A stretch of 33,021 nt of DNA from Candidatus Omnitrophota bacterium (GTDB lineage: Bacteria; Omnitrophota; Gorgyraeia; Zapsychrales; Zapsychraceae). The notes beneath the pieces are model-generated. The model ran no database searches and was not told the DNA's origin. It saw nothing but the letters and a program-made list of their open reading frames with translations. The stretch lies in assembly GCA_029567025.1 (NCBI GenBank), contig JAKQLT010000217.1, positions 1-33,021 on the forward strand, in the 5' to 3' direction. Shown piece by piece: positions 986 to 26,012 of this stretch; position 1 is the first letter of the stretch, and every line of letters starts with the position of its first letter. A program made the position numbers and the translations under genes.

Positions 986-2257
986 ATGGATAAATTGATC
1001 ATCGAAGGTGGAAAATTTTTAAAAGGCGAGATTATGGTCAGCGGGTCCAAGAATGCCGCATTGCCTATTATTGCGGCCACATTATTAACGGATGAACCGT
1101 GTGTGATTCGCAATGTCCCACGGTTAATGGATACATCGACGATGATACGGCTTTTGAAATCGTTAGGTAAAGATGTGGAGTGGGGCAAAGATAATAAAAT
1201 TTTAATTTCTTCCAACGGTAAACCGAGTGATTTTGCGGATTATAAACTTGTCTCGACGATGCGCGGGTCTTTTTGTGTCTTAGGGCCTCTTTTAGGGAAA
1301 TTGGGTCATGCGAAAGTTTCTTTACCTGGCGGATGCGTTATTGGGGTTCGTCCGGTCGACCTTCACTTAAAAGGGTTGCGCGCTTTAGGGGCAAAAATTG
1401 AGGTTGAAGCCGGCTATGTTCTGGCCAAAGCGAATCGTTTAAAAGGAACGCATATGTATTTAGGCGGAGGGTTTGGTTCTTCTGTTTTGGCGACGGCTAA
1501 TGTGATGATGGCCGCTGTTTTAGCTGAAGGGGAAACCATTATTGAGTCTGCGGCGTGTGAGCCCGAAGTAGAAGATTTAGCGGATTTTTTAACGGCGATG
1601 GGCGCGCGCATTAAAGGAAAGGGAAGTCCGCGTCTTATTATCACAGGGGTAAAGAAATTAAAAGGTGTTAATTATCAGATTATTCCAGATCGTATTGAGG
1701 CCGGAACGTTTATTTTACTGGCGGCTGCCCTTCGTAATAATAATATCGTTATTAAAGGAGCGAACCTATCTCATTTAATGGCGCTTGTTGATAAAATGAA
1801 AGAAGCGGGCGTGAAGATAACGGAAAATAATGAAGGAGATATTTTTGTAAAAACTTCGAAAAATTTAAAACCTGTAACGGTTACAACTTATCCTTATCCG
1901 GGATTTCCGACGGATCTTCAAGCACAAATGATGGCTCTTATGACAACTATTGATGGGATTAGCGTGGTCACAGACAGGGTTTATCCGGATCGCTTTATGC
2001 ATGTCGCGGAATTAAATCGTATGGGCGCGAATATAAAAAAAGAAGGCAGCAACGCGGTTGTCCATGGTGTTAAACATTTATCGGGCGCGCCTGTTGTCGC
2101 GTCTGATTTACGCGCATCAGCCGCTCTTGTTATGGCCGGATTAACCGCTAAAGGAAAAACAGAAATACGGCGACTTTATCATTTAGACCGCGGCTATGAA
2201 AATCTTGATAAGAAATTAACACAGCTCGGCGCAAAAATTTATCGCGAAAAAGAATAA
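986..2257 (+). CDS. murA: UDP-N-acetylglucosamine 1-carboxyvinyltransferase
   Basis: [24 protein letters not shown] (catalytic Cys), [16 protein letters not shown]. Confidence 0.97.
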
Positions 2258-3919: not shown

Positions 3920-4700
3920 TTTTCTTCAACAGATCATCTCTCATAAACGCCATATCATCGAAACTAAAAAGGAATATTTTTTAAAGTTAAAGGATCATGC
4001 CAGCTGTTTGCAGACACAAAAGTATCATGTTTTTAAAAAAAGCATTTCAGCGCCTGATAAAATAAGTCTTATCGCAGAAATTAAGAAAGCCTCGCCTTCT
4101 AAAGGTCTTATTCGTGAAAATTTTGATGTTCTGTCTATTGCAAAAACTTATGAAGAACAAGGCGCGGCCGGGATTTCTGTCTTGACGGAAGATAGATTTT
4201 TTTTAGGAAGCATATCTTATTTGAAAAAAGTTGCGGATTGTGTTCATGTTCCGGTTTTAGCAAAAGATTTTTTTATCGATGAAGGACAGATTTATGAAGC
4301 CCATGCGCACGGGGCGAGCGCGGTTCTTTTAATTATGGCGATTCTAAAAGATCATGAAGTAAAACAATTAATGAATGTCGCGCGGTCTTTAGACGTGGAT
4401 TGTTTAGTTGAGGTTCACAATCGAGAAGAATTTTTGCGTGCTTTAGATTGTGGCGCTGAAATCATAGGCATTAATAATCGCGATTTAAAAACGTTTCATG
4501 TGGATCTTCGCGTTGCCGAAGAATTAATTCCGCAAATTCCTAAAGATAAAGTGATTGTCGTTGAAAGCGGCATTCATTTTTATGGTGAAGTAAAACGTTT
4601 TAAAGAATTGGGCGCGCAGGCGGTTTTAATCGGAGAAACTTTTATGAGAGAACAAGATATAGCACAAAAAATAAAGGAAGTGATGTATGGTCAAAGTTAA
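3909..4700 (+). CDS. trpC: Indole-3-glycerol phosphate synthase
   Basis: IAEIKKASPSKG, ISVLTED, IGINNRDL, ESGI. Confidence 0.96.
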   Translation: MEADFLQQIISHKRHIIETKKEYFLKLKDHASCLQTQKYHVFKKSISAPDKISLIAEIKKASPSKGLIRENFDVLSIAKTYEEQGAAGISVLTEDRFFLGSISYLKKVADCVHVPVLAKDFFIDEGQIYEAHAHGASAVLLIMAILKDHEVKQLMNVARSLDVDCLVEVHNREEFLRALDCGAEIIGINNRDLKTFHVDLRVAEELIPQIPKDKVIVVESGIHFYGEVKRFKELGAQAVLIGETFMREQDIAQKIKEVMYGQS

Positions 4701-20888: not shown

Positions 20889-20948
20889 CTTGCTTTCCCG
20901 CTAACCTTTCGATACTATAATTCTCAATGAAAAAAACAAATTTATTTT
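20889..20948 (+). repeat. Direct-repeat copy 2, the ABC transporter promoter (TTGCTT-17-TACTAT) and start
   Basis: Matches 18431-18490. Confidence 0.8.
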
Positions 20949-23089
20949 TTACCTACCAAAAATACATTCTCCCTTATTTAGGCAAAAGCGTTCTATCTCT
21001 TGTGATTGGCACAACGGCTATGATTTTTGGTATGATAACGCCGCTGATCACGAAGGTCTCCATTGATTACGCGTATCCTAATCGAGATATTTTTCTTTTA
21101 ACATTATTAATTCTTGCCGGAATTGTCCTTTTTCTTATTCGACGATTTTTTGATAGCATCGCCGGATATTTGGATATGTTTACGGATACGGACCTTGGCA
21201 TAAAGTTAAAAACAAAATTTTATGATAAGCTCCAAGAGCTTTCTTTAAAATTCCACAGTGAACAGCAAGCCGGCGATTTGGTCTATCGCATGGATGATGA
21301 TATTTCAACCGTTACATCCATGATCACGCAATTTATCGCGACTTCTTTGCAAACCTTAGCCCAGCTTTTCTTTTTATTATTTATCTGTTTTAAATTCGAT
21401 TGGCGTTTTACGGCGCTGGCTTTAACGGGCATTCCTATTTATTTTCTGGAAACCATGGTTTTTTCGAAAAAGCGTAAAGATGTTAGAGAAAAATCTTTAA
21501 AAATTCATTCCAGCCTTCAAAGTTATCTGCAGGAACGTGTGCCTGCTATAAAAATGATTAAATCTTTAGGCCGCGAGAAATTTGAATCCACGCTTTTTAA
21601 GAATAAAATAAAAGAAGTTTTTTTTGTGACTCGTCAAAGTCATGTGGTTTCATTTTTGAATTCTTTCGCGGATTCCTTTATTAGCACTATTTGGCTCGCG
21701 ATTCTTGGCTGGTATGGCGGCTATCGTGTGATTACCGGGAATTTAAGTATCGGCGAGCTTTTGGCTATTACCGCGTACGTTTCTCAAATTTACGGGCCGG
21801 TTATGCAAATCGGCGATATTTATAAATTTATGATCGAGGGCATGGTTTCGGTCAAACGTATTGATGAGGTTATTTCAGGAAAACCTGGAGTTGAAGACGC
21901 TCCCGACGCAAAAGAGCTCAAAGATGTCAAAGGCGATATTCTTTTTAAATCGGTTGATTTTAGTTATGTGCCGGAAAAACCTCTTATGAAGGATATTAAT
22001 TTAGCAATTAAAGCCGGGACATCCGTAGCCCTTGTGGGCCCAAGCGGCGCGGGAAAAACAACATTTACAGATTTGATTATGCGGTTTTATGATCCGGATA
22101 AAGGCGATATTTTTATTGATGGCCATAATTTAAAAAGCATCACACAAGAATCGTTGCGTAAGGCGGTGACTATTGTTAATCAGGAAATTACAATTTTTAC
22201 CGGGACAATTAAAGAAAATATTAAATATGGAAAAGAAAATGTGAGTTTTGAGGATATTGTCTCCGCGGCAAAAATGGCTAATGCCCATGAATTTATTGAA
22301 AAGCTTCCCGATGGATATGACACGATGCTCACTGAACGCGGGCGTAATTTATCCGGCGGACAAAGGCAAAGACTTACTATTGCGCGCGCGCTTATTCGTA
22401 ATCCTAAAGTTTTGATTTTGGATGAGGCGACTTCCGCGCTTGATCCTGAAAGCGAAGCGCGTATTCATGATGCGATGATTAAATTTAAAGAAGGCCGCAC
22501 GGTTGTTACGATTGCGCATAAACTTTCTACTATTGTTGATGCGGATGAAATAATGTTTTTTGAAAAAGGTCAGATTTCTGAACGCGGGATTTTTAATGAA
22601 CTTATGGCCATGAAAGGCCGTTTCGCTCGGTTTTTTGAAGTGGAGTTTGGAAATTTCCGTCATTTTTCAGATCGTTTGTCCCAGGAAGCCTTGCGTACCA
22701 AGCGTTATAAACGGCCATGTTCTTTTATGATGGTTCAGTTGCGAGATTTGGGGTTGTTAGCTCAAAAAATAGGCGAGGAAAATTTACGCGAAGTGTCTTT
22801 ACAAATAGAAGATGTGATACGTCTTTCTATTCGTGAAGTGGATTTTACGGCGAAATATCATGAAAATCGTTTTGTTGTGGGTTTGCCTGAAACTCCATCA
22901 GATGGCGCGCGTGTTGCCGCTGAGAGATTAGAAAAAAGAATCAGAGAATATTCTTTTGTAAAAAAAGATGAAGAAATAAAGGTTTCGCCTGTTATAGGCA
23001 TCGCGACGATAGGAGAAGACGCTCATACCACCACAGATCTTTATGTGCGCGCGGAAAAAATGATCGAAGATAAGTTGGCAGGAGTTTAA
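20927..23089 (+). CDS. ABC exporter (TMD+NBD) fused to a C-terminal degenerate GGDEF-like domain
   Basis: TM domain, GPSGAGKT, LSGGQRQR, LDEATSALD; tail RYKRPCSFMMV...IREVDFTAKYHENRFVVGLPET..GARVAAERL...IGIA..DLYVRAE. Confidence 0.88.
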   Translation: MKKTNLFFTYQKYILPYLGKSVLSLVIGTTAMIFGMITPLITKVSIDYAYPNRDIFLLTLLILAGIVLFLIRRFFDSIAGYLDMFTDTDLGIKLKTKFYDKLQELSLKFHSEQQAGDLVYRMDDDISTVTSMITQFIATSLQTLAQLFFLLFICFKFDWRFTALALTGIPIYFLETMVFSKKRKDVREKSLKIHSSLQSYLQERVPAIKMIKSLGREKFESTLFKNKIKEVFFVTRQSHVVSFLNSFADSFISTIWLAILGWYGGYRVITGNLSIGELLAITAYVSQIYGPVMQIGDIYKFMIEGMVSVKRIDEVISGKPGVEDAPDAKELKDVKGDILFKSVDFSYVPEKPLMKDINLAIKAGTSVALVGPSGAGKTTFTDLIMRFYDPDKGDIFIDGHNLKSITQESLRKAVTIVNQEITIFTGTIKENIKYGKENVSFEDIVSAAKMANAHEFIEKLPDGYDTMLTERGRNLSGGQRQRLTIARALIRNPKVLILDEATSALDPESEARIHDAMIKFKEGRTVVTIAHKLSTIVDADEIMFFEKGQISERGIFNELMAMKGRFARFFEVEFGNFRHFSDRLSQEALRTKRYKRPCSFMMVQLRDLGLLAQKIGEENLREVSLQIEDVIRLSIREVDFTAKYHENRFVVGLPETPSDGARVAAERLEKRIREYSFVKKDEEIKVSPVIGIATIGEDAHTTTDLYVRAEKMIEDKLAGV

Positions 23090-23091
23090 AA

Positions 23092-23607
23092 ATGTTCGGG
23101 AAAAAAGAATTAAAAGAAAAGAAATTATCGCTTAAGCAAAAAGGTTTTTTGGATAAAATCTTTGAAGAAGACATTCAAAAGCAAGCGAATTGCGTTGAAG
23201 TTTTAGGATGGGTAGGGCTTGTTGTCTTTGTGTTTCTTTTAGCCGTGCTCTGGACAGCCAAATTTGATGTTACTGTCCCGGCTGATCATGTTAAATTGGT
23301 TTCTTTACCGTCGGATAATAGTTTTATTCTTGAAGGTGAGATTGCAGAACTTTATGCGGCCTCGATTAAGAAAGGTCAAAAGGTTCACGTTCAAATTACT
23401 ACTCATCAAAATGAAGTTTTAAAGGTCACAAGCGCTATTTCTGAAGCGTATCCTAAAACGGGAACATTAAGTTTAATTATTAAAGTCGCGCCCATGCTTG
23501 ACGCTGGCAAACTTCAAGCTATTTCCAAAGAGATAAAGAATATATCTTTACGCGTCATTGTTGAACAAAAACGTCTTGTGACTCTTTTTCTCGAAAAACA
23601 AGAGTAG
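23092..23607 (+). CDS. Short HlyD-like membrane-anchored adaptor protein
   Basis: Single TM, then ILEGEIAELYAASIKKGQKVHVQI beta-barrel-like segment; coupled to the ABC gene. Confidence 0.55.
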   Translation: MFGKKELKEKKLSLKQKGFLDKIFEEDIQKQANCVEVLGWVGLVVFVFLLAVLWTAKFDVTVPADHVKLVSLPSDNSFILEGEIAELYAASIKKGQKVHVQITTHQNEVLKVTSAISEAYPKTGTLSLIIKVAPMLDAGKLQAISKEIKNISLRVIVEQKRLVTLFLEKQE

Positions 23608-23660: not shown

Positions 23661-23689
23661 TTGACAAGCGAAAAAATATTCGTTACACT
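23661..23689 (+). promoter_or_regulatory. Near-consensus sigma70 promoter
   Basis: TTGACA-17-TACACT. Confidence 0.7.
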
Positions 23690-23730
23690 CATTTCAATAT
23701 TTAACTTATTATAAGAAAGGAAGGACGCAG

Positions 23731-23901
23731 ATGGAGAAATTATCATTTTATGATGTCAAGACTAAAGGAAAATTTGAAACCGATCAATATCAAGTCAAAG
23801 AAAAAGGCGGCAGATTTTTCGCCGTGGCCAAATCCCCTAAAGGCCCACATGAATGCTGGAGAGTTTTAAGCAAAGATCAAGCACAAAAGATGAAGAAGTA
23901 A
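23731..23901 (+). CDS. 56-aa basic protein resembling crenarchaeal chromatin protein CC1
   Basis: MEKLSFYDVKTKGKFETDQYQVKEKGGRFFAVAKSPKGPHECWRVLSKDQAQKMKK; strong RBS (aaggaagga) and promoter; below the ORF-track length cutoff. Confidence 0.8.
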   Translation: MEKLSFYDVKTKGKFETDQYQVKEKGGRFFAVAKSPKGPHECWRVLSKDQAQKMKK

Positions 23902-23951
23902 TTCTTTCGAGGAATTCCAGCACAAAAAATAATTATTTATTGGAAAGAGTT

Positions 23952-24329
23952 TTGAAGATTACCAAGTCCTCTTTAACATCAAAAAAACTTGCTGTTGTCA
24001 TAGCCCAACTGGCTTTTGATAAAAAGGCGGAAGATATTGTTGTCTTGGACATGCGCAAGGTCGTGAATTTTTGCGATTATTTTGTAATTTGTTCTGGGAC
24101 AAGCGACCGTCATGTCAAATCTATTGCCGATGGCATTGATCTTGGGCTTGAAGCATTAGGGGAAGCCATTCCGAAATTTAGCCGTAAAGCGCAGGAAACC
24201 GATTGGATCGTCTTAGATGTTGGAAATGTCGTGGCACACATTTTTCAAAAAGATCTAAGAGCGTTTTATAATTTGGAATATTTGTGGCAGGAAGCCAAAG
24301 TGGTTAATTTAGATAAAGACCTTTTATAA
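23952..24329 (+). CDS. rsfS: Ribosome silencing factor
   Basis: DKKAEDIVVLD, DYFVICSGTSDRHVKSIAD, WIVLD, FYNLEYLW; start moved to TTG 23952. Confidence 0.93.
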   Translation: MKITKSSLTSKKLAVVIAQLAFDKKAEDIVVLDMRKVVNFCDYFVICSGTSDRHVKSIADGIDLGLEALGEAIPKFSRKAQETDWIVLDVGNVVAHIFQKDLRAFYNLEYLWQEAKVVNLDKDLL

Positions 24330-24338
24330 AAATGTCCC

Positions 24339-26012
24339 ATGTTAGATGCATTAAAAACGCAATTACAAAATGTTTTAGCAGATTCTCTTAAAGATATTTT
24401 TGCGTCTGAAAATAACGTGCCAGAGGTTATATTAGAAATCCCCGCGGATAAAAACCACGGGGATTTTTCTTGTAATATCGCGCTTAAATCCGCAAAATTG
24501 CTAAAAAAATCTCCTATAGCAGTGGCAGAAAGAATCATCGCGGCTTTTCAAAAAGAGTTATCTTTAAATTTTTTAAAAAATAAAATTCAAAAAGTAGAAG
24601 TTAAGGCGCCGGGGTTTATCAATATTTTTCTCTCATCAGAAAGTTTTTATGATGTCTTAACCGCTATTGGGAAACAGAAAGATTTGTATGGCCAAACCAG
24701 TATCGGACAAGGCGAAAAAGTTCAGATAGAATTCGTGAGCGCTAATCCGACGGGGCCGTTAAGTGTCGCGCACGCGCGTCAGGCGGCTGTGGGAGACGCG
24801 CTGGGGAATATTTTAAAATTTTTAGGATTTAACGTTGATAAAGAATATTACGTCAATGACGGCGGCAATCAGATAAATATTTTAGGGCTTTCGGTGCGCG
24901 CGCGCGCTTTTCAAATTTTAGGAAAAGAAGTTGAATTTTTAGAAGATTATTATCAGGGCGAATATATTAAAGATATGGCGCGGCTTTTTATGGAGGAAAA
25001 TAAAATAAAAACGCTGGCCGATCTCGAGAAAAAAACGTCGAAAGAGTTTTCCCAATGGGCGTGTGCGTATTTATTAGGCGTTATTAAAAAAGAATTGAGT
25101 GATTTTGGCGTTCATTTTGATGCCTGGAGTTATGAGTCGAAAATTTCAACGCCGGAGAAAATTGAAAAAACATTGCGAGCATTGAAATCGAAAGATTTGG
25201 TTTATGAAAAAGAAGGGGCTTGGTGGTTTCGTTCGACGAGTTTTGGCGATGATAAAGACCGCGTGGTGAAAAAAAGTGACGGGGCGTATACATATTTAGC
25301 GCCGGATATTGTGTATCATGAGAATAAATTTAACCGAGGATATTCGTGGCTCATTAATATTTGGGGGCCGGATCATCACGGCTATATTCCGCGTATTAAG
25401 GCGGCGGCGCAGGCCTTGGGAAAAAATAAGGAAGATTTGGATGTCTTAATTGTTCAGCTTGCCACTATTTATCGAAATGGCGAATTATTATCTATGTCAA
25501 CCCGTCGGGGTCAATATATCAGTTTGCGCGAAGTGATGGATGAGGTCGGAGTGGATGCGGCGCGATTTTTCTTTTTGATGCGCCATATTGAAGCGCATTT
25601 GGAGTTTGATTTAGAAGTGGCTAAAAAACAAACAGCGGAAAATCCTGTTTATTATATTCAATACGCCCACGCGCGCATCCATAGCATTAATAAAAAAGCC
25701 CAAGAACAAAATATTTCTGTCGCAGAAAAAGGATTTTCGTTGCTTAAAGAAGAGGAAGAAATAACGCTGATTCGTCAATTGGGAGAATTCTCTCAGGCTC
25801 TTTCTTTTTGTTATGACCAGCTTGATCCGTATCCTTTGGTCAGCTATTTAATGGAATTAGCGATTATTTTTCATCGATTTTATGATAAACATAAAGTCAT
25901 TTCTGATAATATTGCTCTATCTCAAGAGCGGTTAACTCTTGTGAATTGCGCCAGGATTGTTTTCGCCAATGGCCTGCGACTTTTGGGTCTTCAAACTCCC
26001 GAACAAATGTGA
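24339..26012 (+). CDS. argS: Arginine--tRNA ligase
   Basis: EFVSANPTGPLSVAHAR, MSTRRG, YIQYAHAR, C-terminal PEQM. Confidence 0.97.
   Translation: MLDALKTQLQNVLADSLKDIFASENNVPEVILEIPADKNHGDFSCNIALKSAKLLKKSPIAVAERIIAAFQKELSLNFLKNKIQKVEVKAPGFINIFLSSESFYDVLTAIGKQKDLYGQTSIGQGEKVQIEFVSANPTGPLSVAHARQAAVGDALGNILKFLGFNVDKEYYVNDGGNQINILGLSVRARAFQILGKEVEFLEDYYQGEYIKDMARLFMEENKIKTLADLEKKTSKEFSQWACAYLLGVIKKELSDFGVHFDAWSYESKISTPEKIEKTLRALKSKDLVYEKEGAWWFRSTSFGDDKDRVVKKSDGAYTYLAPDIVYHENKFNRGYSWLINIWGPDHHGYIPRIKAAAQALGKNKEDLDVLIVQLATIYRNGELLSMSTRRGQYISLREVMDEVGVDAARFFFLMRHIEAHLEFDLEVAKKQTAENPVYYIQYAHARIHSINKKAQEQNISVAEKGFSLLKEEEEITLIRQLGEFSQALSFCYDQLDPYPLVSYLMELAIIFHRFYDKHKVISDNIALSQERLTLVNCARIVFANGLRLLGLQTPEQM

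Follow-up and report, generated by a model that had tools for sequence, protein, structure and literature searches.

A CC1-family protein gene in Omnitrophota bacteria and its likely kinship with the DUF5679 zinc ribbon

What is a short lysine-rich reading frame resembling a crenarchaeal chromatin protein doing just upstream of rsfS and argS in a bacterial genome? In the review literature, CC1 appears as a lineage-specific chromatin protein of Crenarchaeota (PMC7613761), and a preliminary description, made from the sequence alone, had read the ORF as its bacterial homologue and as an overlooked nucleoid-associated protein. The window studied here, i.e., the whole stretch of DNA that was analysed, is a contig of 33,021 nt (JAKQLT010000217.1) from the genome of a Candidatus Omnitrophota bacterium (GCA_029567025.1; 1.6 Mb, 92.7% complete; hereafter G000). 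Taken as a whole, it seems to us quite probable that the product of this ORF is a bacterial CC1-family protein, which would be an abundant, sequence-independent nucleic-acid binder descended from the DUF5679 zinc ribbon through loss of the zinc. The argument turns on the following features of the window.

23661..23689, + strand: sigma-70-type promoter-like site, TTGACA-17 nt-TACACT, with 10 of 12 consensus positions (consensus scan)
23716..23725, + strand: Shine-Dalgarno stretch AAAGGAAGGA, 5 nt 5' of the ATG, read from the sequence
23731..23901, + strand: gene assigned to the CC1 family, 56 aa, ATG start, TAA stop
23940..24329, + strand: rsfS, ribosomal silencing factor (PF02410, E 4.2e-30)
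24339..26012, + strand: argS, arginyl-tRNA synthetase, as context (PF05746, PF00750, PF03485)

The ORF at 23731..23901 is a real gene on which purifying selection acts. When its product was compared with a 90%-clustered protein collection, 693 candidates arose and 692 of them passed E<=0.01, the best 120 with 76–93% identity and a length of 56–79 aa, while a phmmer search against 1.84 billion representatives returned 116 representatives of 50%-identity clusters at E<=1e-3. Synonymous codon changes outnumber non-synonymous ones in 11/11 comparisons within the window's order, and the gene is single-copy in G000, so that the 56-aa Lys-rich ORF of the preliminary description stands as a gene. The encoded protein has a computed mass of 6569 Da, a pI of 9.76 and a net charge of +7 (12 Lys and 2 Arg). 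Public MAG records label it “hypothetical protein”, and the exact 56-aa sequence is present in the ESM Atlas, where the bacterial labels WWE3, Chloroflexota and Bacteroidota are each attached to one or two records, too few to delimit the range of the family. No Pfam or NCBIfam family was matched by the window protein or by six CC1 proteins from Crenarchaeota, the only rows lying far under the cut-off (Phage_zn_bind_2, E 0.12; Pox_I3, E 0.18), in agreement with the statement of PMC7613761 that no HMM exists for Cc1. This absence of a CC1 profile model explains the “hypothetical” labels on these genes. A sequence search of the PDB, by protein as well as by profile, gave nothing meaningful.

To examine the distribution of the gene, we relied on an even sample of 301 Omnitrophota genomes (G000 counted), of which 38 carry it, each with one match (E 1e-25 to 3e-32). 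The carriers comprise 30/30 genomes of the window's order (families f1–f6, including G000) and eight genomes from five other families of the same class, with no carrier among the genomes searched from the other Omnitrophota classes. Hence, the attribution of the protein to “this lineage” in the preliminary description holds for an entire order and for five further families of its class, not for the whole phylum, while the conservation of the ORF in related genomes, on which that description had staked its reading, was indeed found. As for synteny across Omnitrophota, rsfS lies directly 3' on the same strand in 15/15 other loci of the order, and in 3/8 loci of the other families. NadD-like genes and rsfS are commonly adjacent in bacteria, and in family f21 the CC1-like gene sits between the two. 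The upstream genes show no conservation among the Omnitrophota loci compared.

These data also bear on whether the ORF could be an archaeal contaminant, a mis-binned fragment or a chance ORF. At face value, such a reading might draw on the fact that the closest named relative is archaeal, a protein from a Nanoarchaeota single-cell genome with 70% identity to the window protein (37/53; E 6e-28), and on a few public records oddly labelled Elusimicrobia or Bacteroidia. Yet the gene lies within a 33-kb contig among bacterial genes (ABC exporter, rsfS, argS), its G+C content equals that of the window (0.374 vs 0.372), it recurs in 38 Omnitrophota genomes with a conserved bacterial synteny and a sigma-70-type promoter, and it has hundreds of homologues evolving under purifying selection. 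Synteny, promoter, G+C content and homologues together rule this reading out, its probability being next to nil, and the preliminary argument against contamination, which had invoked the bacterial context alone, is thereby strengthened to an exclusion.

Regarding expression signals, a promoter scan of the region yielded two sites against 3.5 expected from shuffling, so that the scan by itself carries little weight, and the support for the promoter-like site comes instead from its conservation upstream of orthologues. The arrangement TTGACA-17-TAnnnT, at an unchanged upstream distance, is found in 12/12 loci of the set L001–L012 and in 13/24 Omnitrophota loci overall; among these 24, three others have TTGAAA/TTGAAT-17-TA[CA]ACT, three have another TTGnnn-16/17-TATAAT, and a promoter of this pattern is absent from the remaining five. 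AAGGAGG-type sites occupy the position corresponding to the Shine-Dalgarno stretch in related loci, and the near-consensus promoter and strong ribosome-binding site described beforehand are thus confirmed, as are rsfS and argS downstream (by Pfam).

Only two RNA runs contain any part of the stretch, in the form of contigs, from which ranking the expression of the gene is impossible and in which a lack of cover carries no meaning; the only runs with identical sequence are labelled activated sludge and wastewater. A contig of 244 nt, assembled in a metatranscriptome of activated sludge, is identical to 23785..24028 and takes in both the stop codon of the CC1-like gene and the rsfS start; as a single contig of low depth from a library that may contain DNA, it attests no more than that the stretch is present in an RNA library. 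The listed rsfS ORF, beginning at ATG 23853, would overlap the CC1-like gene, but translation of rsfS probably starts at TTG 23940 or 23952, with which the two genes do not overlap. On the other side of the gene, the window encodes (+ strand) a 720-aa ABC exporter (ABC_membrane and ABC_tran; 20927..23089) with a GGDEF (diguanylate-cyclase) domain at its C-terminus, in which a transporter is fused, unusually, to a c-di-GMP synthase domain; a 171-aa HlyD-like protein (23092..23607, + strand) comes next.

Several lines of evidence make the 56-aa protein almost certainly a member of the CC1 family. Among the phmmer matches to the window protein are three short, CC1-type sequences (P0219, P0220 and P0231; E 4e-4 to 9e-4), which trace to Pyrobaculum, Thermoproteus and Desulfurococcales genomes. 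In BLASTP, the window protein and a Thermoproteus protein of 56 aa (computed pI 10.0) share 24 of 51 residues (47%; E 2e-14), and an hhalign comparison of 16 Omnitrophota with 16 crenarchaeal sequences reaches a probability of 98% (E 1.4e-13) over 50 columns. Both the similarity to Thermoproteales CC1 pointed out in the preliminary description and the profile comparison proposed there are therefore upheld by significant matches.

That the crenarchaeal sequences are CC1 is supported by their distribution. An alignment of P0219, P0220, P0231 and a cluster-mate led to 71 loci in species-representative genomes; since the scan patterns fit the crenarchaeal form, this count is not a measure of the range of the family in other bacteria. 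Pyrobaculum, Thermoproteus or other Thermoproteales account for 39 of these loci, and 29 bear record titles of Desulfurococcales and allies (including one Thermoprotei and three Sulfolobales MAGs), while the last three are spread over a single-cell genome of Nanoarchaeota and two MAGs, one of Thermoplasmatales and one of Halanaerobiales. The bulk of the loci thus has the distribution reported for CC1, i.e., Thermoproteales and Desulfurococcales (PMC2275093), which supports the identification. Moreover, three CC1 copies per genome occur in P. oguniense (two of the products being identical), Pyrobaculum WP30 and Thermoproteus CP80, while T. tenax is described as having three CC1 genes, the products of two of them identical (PMC3189178), and the values tabulated for its CC1 are 56 aa and pI 10 (Table 1 of PMC7613761). 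T. tenax itself is not among the 71 loci, hence equating the Thermoproteus and Pyrobaculum proteins with the purified CC1 rests on genus-level relatives and on the descriptors given in citing papers.

The family is held to occur only in Crenarchaeota, which does not agree with its presence in 38/301 Omnitrophota and 10/201 Nanoarchaeota-phylum genomes. As the restriction reflects prior knowledge of the range and is not a criterion of homology, these occurrences widen the family and do not exclude the window protein from it. Single CC1-family genes were also noted under other labels: L082 2998..3147 (Halanaerobiales MAG), L081 2998..3159 (Thermoplasmatales MAG), P0269 (Bacteroidia) and P0050 (Elusimicrobia). 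Besides its three strong CC1 genes, Thermoproteus sp. CP80 has a fourth, far weaker match to the family profile (G305:C1:7034-7174; E 7e-11), which may be a divergent paralogue.

As judged from sequence, the nearest named relatives of the window protein are DPANN archaea, not Crenarchaeota/Thermoproteales. Two public relatives are labelled Candidatus Nanoarchaeia and “archaeon”, one each, the second label coming from the clusters of 20 distant representatives, which yielded hardly any organism names, and the matches in the ten Nanoarchaeota-phylum genomes (of 201 sampled) are strong (E<=3e-20) and have the ECWRV motif and the C-terminal helix in common with the bacterial form. This long form, common to Omnitrophota and DPANN, points to an old transfer between domains, which may have gone in either direction. 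A tree of 127 rows and 56 columns was computed with a quick method; it omits those 48 representatives, out of 116, whose sequences were fused, very long, truncated or frameshifted, leaves most forks unsupported and gives no direction of transfer. It interleaves 24 Omnitrophota rows with seven Nanoarchaeota-phylum rows and ten from metagenomes within a single group of weak support (SH-aLRT 81), places crenarchaeal CC1 elsewhere, nested among short metagenomic forms, and splits off the DUF5679 outgroup at 99. The Omnitrophota rows do not come out as one clade, nor does the AU test reject such a clade (p 0.40). In the four Nanoarchaeota-phylum loci whose neighbours were scanned, we found no common context and no link to rsfS, the neighbours being FtsY/SRP54, Fur, DUF655 and a Kazal-domain protein. 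The latter, on a Nanoarchaeota contig with the CC1-like gene (L080 1413..2132), is 239 aa long and contains three protease-inhibitor domains of the Kazal type (E 2e-20). Finally, some metagenomic relatives are fused forms, in which a C-terminal CC1 domain follows several membrane-spanning segments or a coiled coil, with a Lys-rich linker (P0134, P0158, P0160; P0152, P0155, P0201, P0206, P0225, P0233); Pfam scans of ten fused forms brought out no informative domain.

An AlphaFold2 model based on a 95-row alignment of the family (mean pLDDT 87.8) has strands at residues 4–8, 13–17, 20–25, 28–34 and 41–46, followed by a helix at 48–55, from which the window protein is confidently predicted to be a Cren7/Sul7d-type SH3-like barrel of five strands, extended by a C-terminal helix. 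In a structural search against representatives, Cren7 (4r55_A) comes first, with 51 of 53 residues aligned at 2.2 A rmsd and a Z of 5.9, a value modest in absolute terms and under the distinctive range of the search method; the next row has a Z of 3.7, and lower ones include Tudor, chromo and SH3 domains as well as zinc ribbons (NrdR, ZitP, RNA-polymerase subunits). With Foldseek, the model has no match at E<=1e-3, the top rows including Cren7 (TM 0.64, probability 0.92, E 0.93), Sac7d and Sso7d. The small beta-sheet protein announced in the preliminary description is thus recovered in the model, and the comparison with Cren7 and Sul7 that it had proposed has Cren7 as the best solved match.

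This likeness of fold has no counterpart in sequence: set against 24 Cren7 sequences in hhalign, the CC1-family profile remained under 3% probability (E 0.02–0.3) and the Pfam model of Cren7 (PF11520) did not match the window protein. CC1 is likewise described as resembling Sul7/Cren7 in its beta-rich organisation without sequence similarity (PMC4200833). For Cren7, an origin from a zinc ribbon through the loss of cysteines has been published (PMC5906684), and the likeness of fold between Cren7 and CC1 may reflect parallel descent from different zinc ribbons. Apart from this, proteins of Thermoproteota genomes (L160–L163) belong to the Cren7 family with all four cysteines kept (CPKCG ... CPSCG), and match the zinc-bearing Cren7 relatives reported by Kaur et al. 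2018, who mention CC1 once, in the conclusions.

Which zinc ribbon, then, could have given rise to CC1? In the Nanoarchaeota sample, the CC1-family profile yielded four weak matches (E 8e-6 to 3e-4), all of them falling exactly on DUF5679-model genes. A Pfam scan of two (L096 and L097) returned DUF5679 with E 1.8e-15 and 7.6e-15, and the identity of the other two follows from the coordinates shared with DUF5679-model genes. Aligned by hhalign with 24 DUF5679 proteins, the 95-row CC1 family gives a probability of 75% (E 2.5e-5) with 55 collinear columns over the full length, the Omnitrophota subset 51% and the crenarchaeal subset 39%, while Cren7 served as the negative control (under 3%, as above). 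We regard a link of this kind, at 75, 51 or 39% depending on the sub-alignment, as moderate in strength. The Pfam DUF5679 model does not list the window protein at E<=10, and no DUF5679 gene was found in the G000 genome searched.

The four zinc-ligand cysteines of DUF5679 align with D8 and T11 (first CxxC) and with S35 and G38 (second CxxC), which in the model lie in the beta1/beta2 and beta4/beta5 turns, and the only cysteine of the window protein, C42, is away from these positions. It is at the beta1/beta2 and beta4/beta5 turns that the zinc-ribbon knuckles map onto Cren7, according to PMC5906684. A model of DUF5679 (pLDDT 75.8) has the same order of five strands as that of the CC1-like protein, and a structural search with it again ranks Cren7 first (Z 4.0), in a tie with the zinc ribbon of NrdR (Z 3.8). 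An ESM Atlas cluster with 17% DUF5679 members scores 0.89, which we take as a lead only.

The genomic distribution of the two families was compared as well. In one Nanoarchaeota single-cell genome, the DUF5679 gene ends 34 nt 5' of the CC1-like gene:

L088 about 1345..1467 and 1495..1677 (= G301:C91:3894-4016 and 4050-4214), same strand: pair formed by the DUF5679 gene and the CC1-like gene of genome G301

These adjacent genes look like a tandem pair of an ancestor-type and a derived-type copy. Moreover, DUF5679 is present in 123/201 Nanoarchaeota-phylum genomes and in only two of the ten with a CC1-like gene, which hints that the latter displaces DUF5679, the numbers being small and the genomes related and non-independent. 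Altogether, alignments and models make it likely, in our estimation, that the CC1 family descends from the DUF5679 zinc ribbon and has lost both its cysteines and its zinc. In the literature, we found no paper stating a zinc-ribbon origin of CC1, and the papers listed as mentioning DUF5679/PF18930 concern unrelated topics; to our knowledge, DUF5679 has no known function.

What the protein does in the cell can be approached through its characterised relative. The CC1 of T. tenax is described as a 6-kDa basic protein binding both single- and double-stranded DNA (PMC4200833, PMC2275093). By analogy, the CC1-like protein would most likely be an abundant monomer binding single- and double-stranded nucleic acid irrespective of sequence, with the basic face of its barrel coating or protecting DNA, and it would act beside HU, SSB and cold-shock proteins, not in their place. 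On these grounds, nucleic-acid binding appears likely, and a true nucleoid or chromatin role, which is what the preliminary description had proposed, falls just short of an even chance. HU (PF00216) is encoded by 295 of the 301 Omnitrophota genomes, including all carriers, and G000 has two SSB genes above the Pfam cut-off and two cold-shock (CSD) genes. The idea that CC1 replaces HU was accordingly rejected, as was, for G000, a replacement of SSB or Csp: with all three present, there is no vacant role for the CC1-like protein to fill.

Two other functions have to be weighed against this nucleic-acid-coating role. The protein might be an RNA-binding or ribosome-associated factor acting together with RsfS to silence ribosomes or control translation, instead of a DNA or chromatin protein, as could be suspected from rsfS lying directly 3' on the same strand in each of the 15 loci compared from the rest of the order (and in three of the eight from other families), from the RNA-library contig spanning both genes and from the presence of L44e and other ribosomal chains among the weak fold matches (Z 2.6–3.1), small basic beta-barrels and zinc ribbons being common in ribosomal proteins. 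Yet the link to rsfS is absent from 5/8 loci outside the order and from the four Nanoarchaeota-phylum loci scanned, the position between the NadD-like gene and rsfS in f21 looks like an insertion site and not like functional coupling, and the only characterised relative binds DNA (PMC4200833, PMC2275093). With the linkage lost beyond the order and absent from the archaeal loci examined, we consider this explanation unlikely. The protein might also be mainly a protector of single-stranded DNA, i.e., an accessory SSB, as has been proposed for CC1 in Thermoproteales, which are described as lacking a canonical SSB: CC1 binds ssDNA cooperatively, about as well as dsDNA, and has been suggested as a substitute for SSB in T. 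tenax and Pyrobaculum (PMC3189178, PMC2275093, PMC4200833). G000, however, encodes two canonical SSB genes, which leaves nothing to substitute, and we deem this function somewhat less probable still than a ribosomal one.

What is new here is a bacterial member of the CC1 family, known until now from Crenarchaeota only; we found no report in the literature of a bacterial CC1, and the archaeal range, with DPANN, is wider than the one described. Strictly conserved bacterial orthologues and DPANN relatives at 70% identity change the known range of CC1 and make it a candidate case of a chromatin-type protein common to two domains. A mesophilic CC1-family protein would also be easier material for the biochemistry of CC1, and the alignments made here could seed a family model for naming these genes in annotation. 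Were the link to DUF5679 true, CC1 would have an origin of the same kind as Cren7/Sul7, i.e., a zinc ribbon that lost its metal, and DUF5679 would receive its first functional lead. Going further, we tentatively entertain a scenario, which we hold to be rather doubtful, in which CC1-type proteins are mobile between domains: they would have arisen from the DUF5679 zinc ribbon in DPANN, passed between DPANN and Omnitrophota (ultra-small cells) and become fixed in one order as a highly expressed second nucleoid protein beside HU. If so, the protein would be an archaeal-type component of bacterial chromatin, comparable to bacterial histones.

With respect to known systems, the window protein shares with Cren7/Sul7d (Sso7d, Sac7d) its size class and basic character. 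Compared with DUF5679 (PF18930), it retains none of the four zinc-binding cysteines (0/4), while the short CC1 forms end in the C-terminal [YW]-R-I-L-G-K of DUF5679. The fused forms recall the CdvA-coiled-coil-Cren7 fusions described by Kaur et al. 2018. Like HU, the CC1-like protein is a small, basic protein, presumably abundant and indifferent to sequence, but the two are unrelated in fold and sequence, and both occur in every carrier genome searched.

The closest comparison is with the CC1 of T. tenax, Pyrobaculum and Desulfurococcales, with which the window protein has in common its length (56 aa), its pI (9.8 vs 10.0), the motif L-x-F-Y-D-[VI]-K-x-K-x-x-F-E-T-D-x-Y ... F-A-V-A-x-S-P ... 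[WY]-R and a beta-rich structure, in which its model agrees with the published description of CC1 (PMC4200833). CC1 belongs to hyperthermophilic archaea. By contrast, the window protein comes from a bacterium, probably a mesophile (activated-sludge and wastewater runs), it occurs in genomes with HU and SSB, and its gene is single-copy, whereas the crenarchaeal genomes have three copies. Between its strands 3 and 4, it is also devoid of the T-A-R-G-type insert of 4 residues that CC1 has, and its W-R motif leads into a conserved helix, SKDQAxKLKK, in place of the terminal LLGKKK of crenarchaeal CC1.
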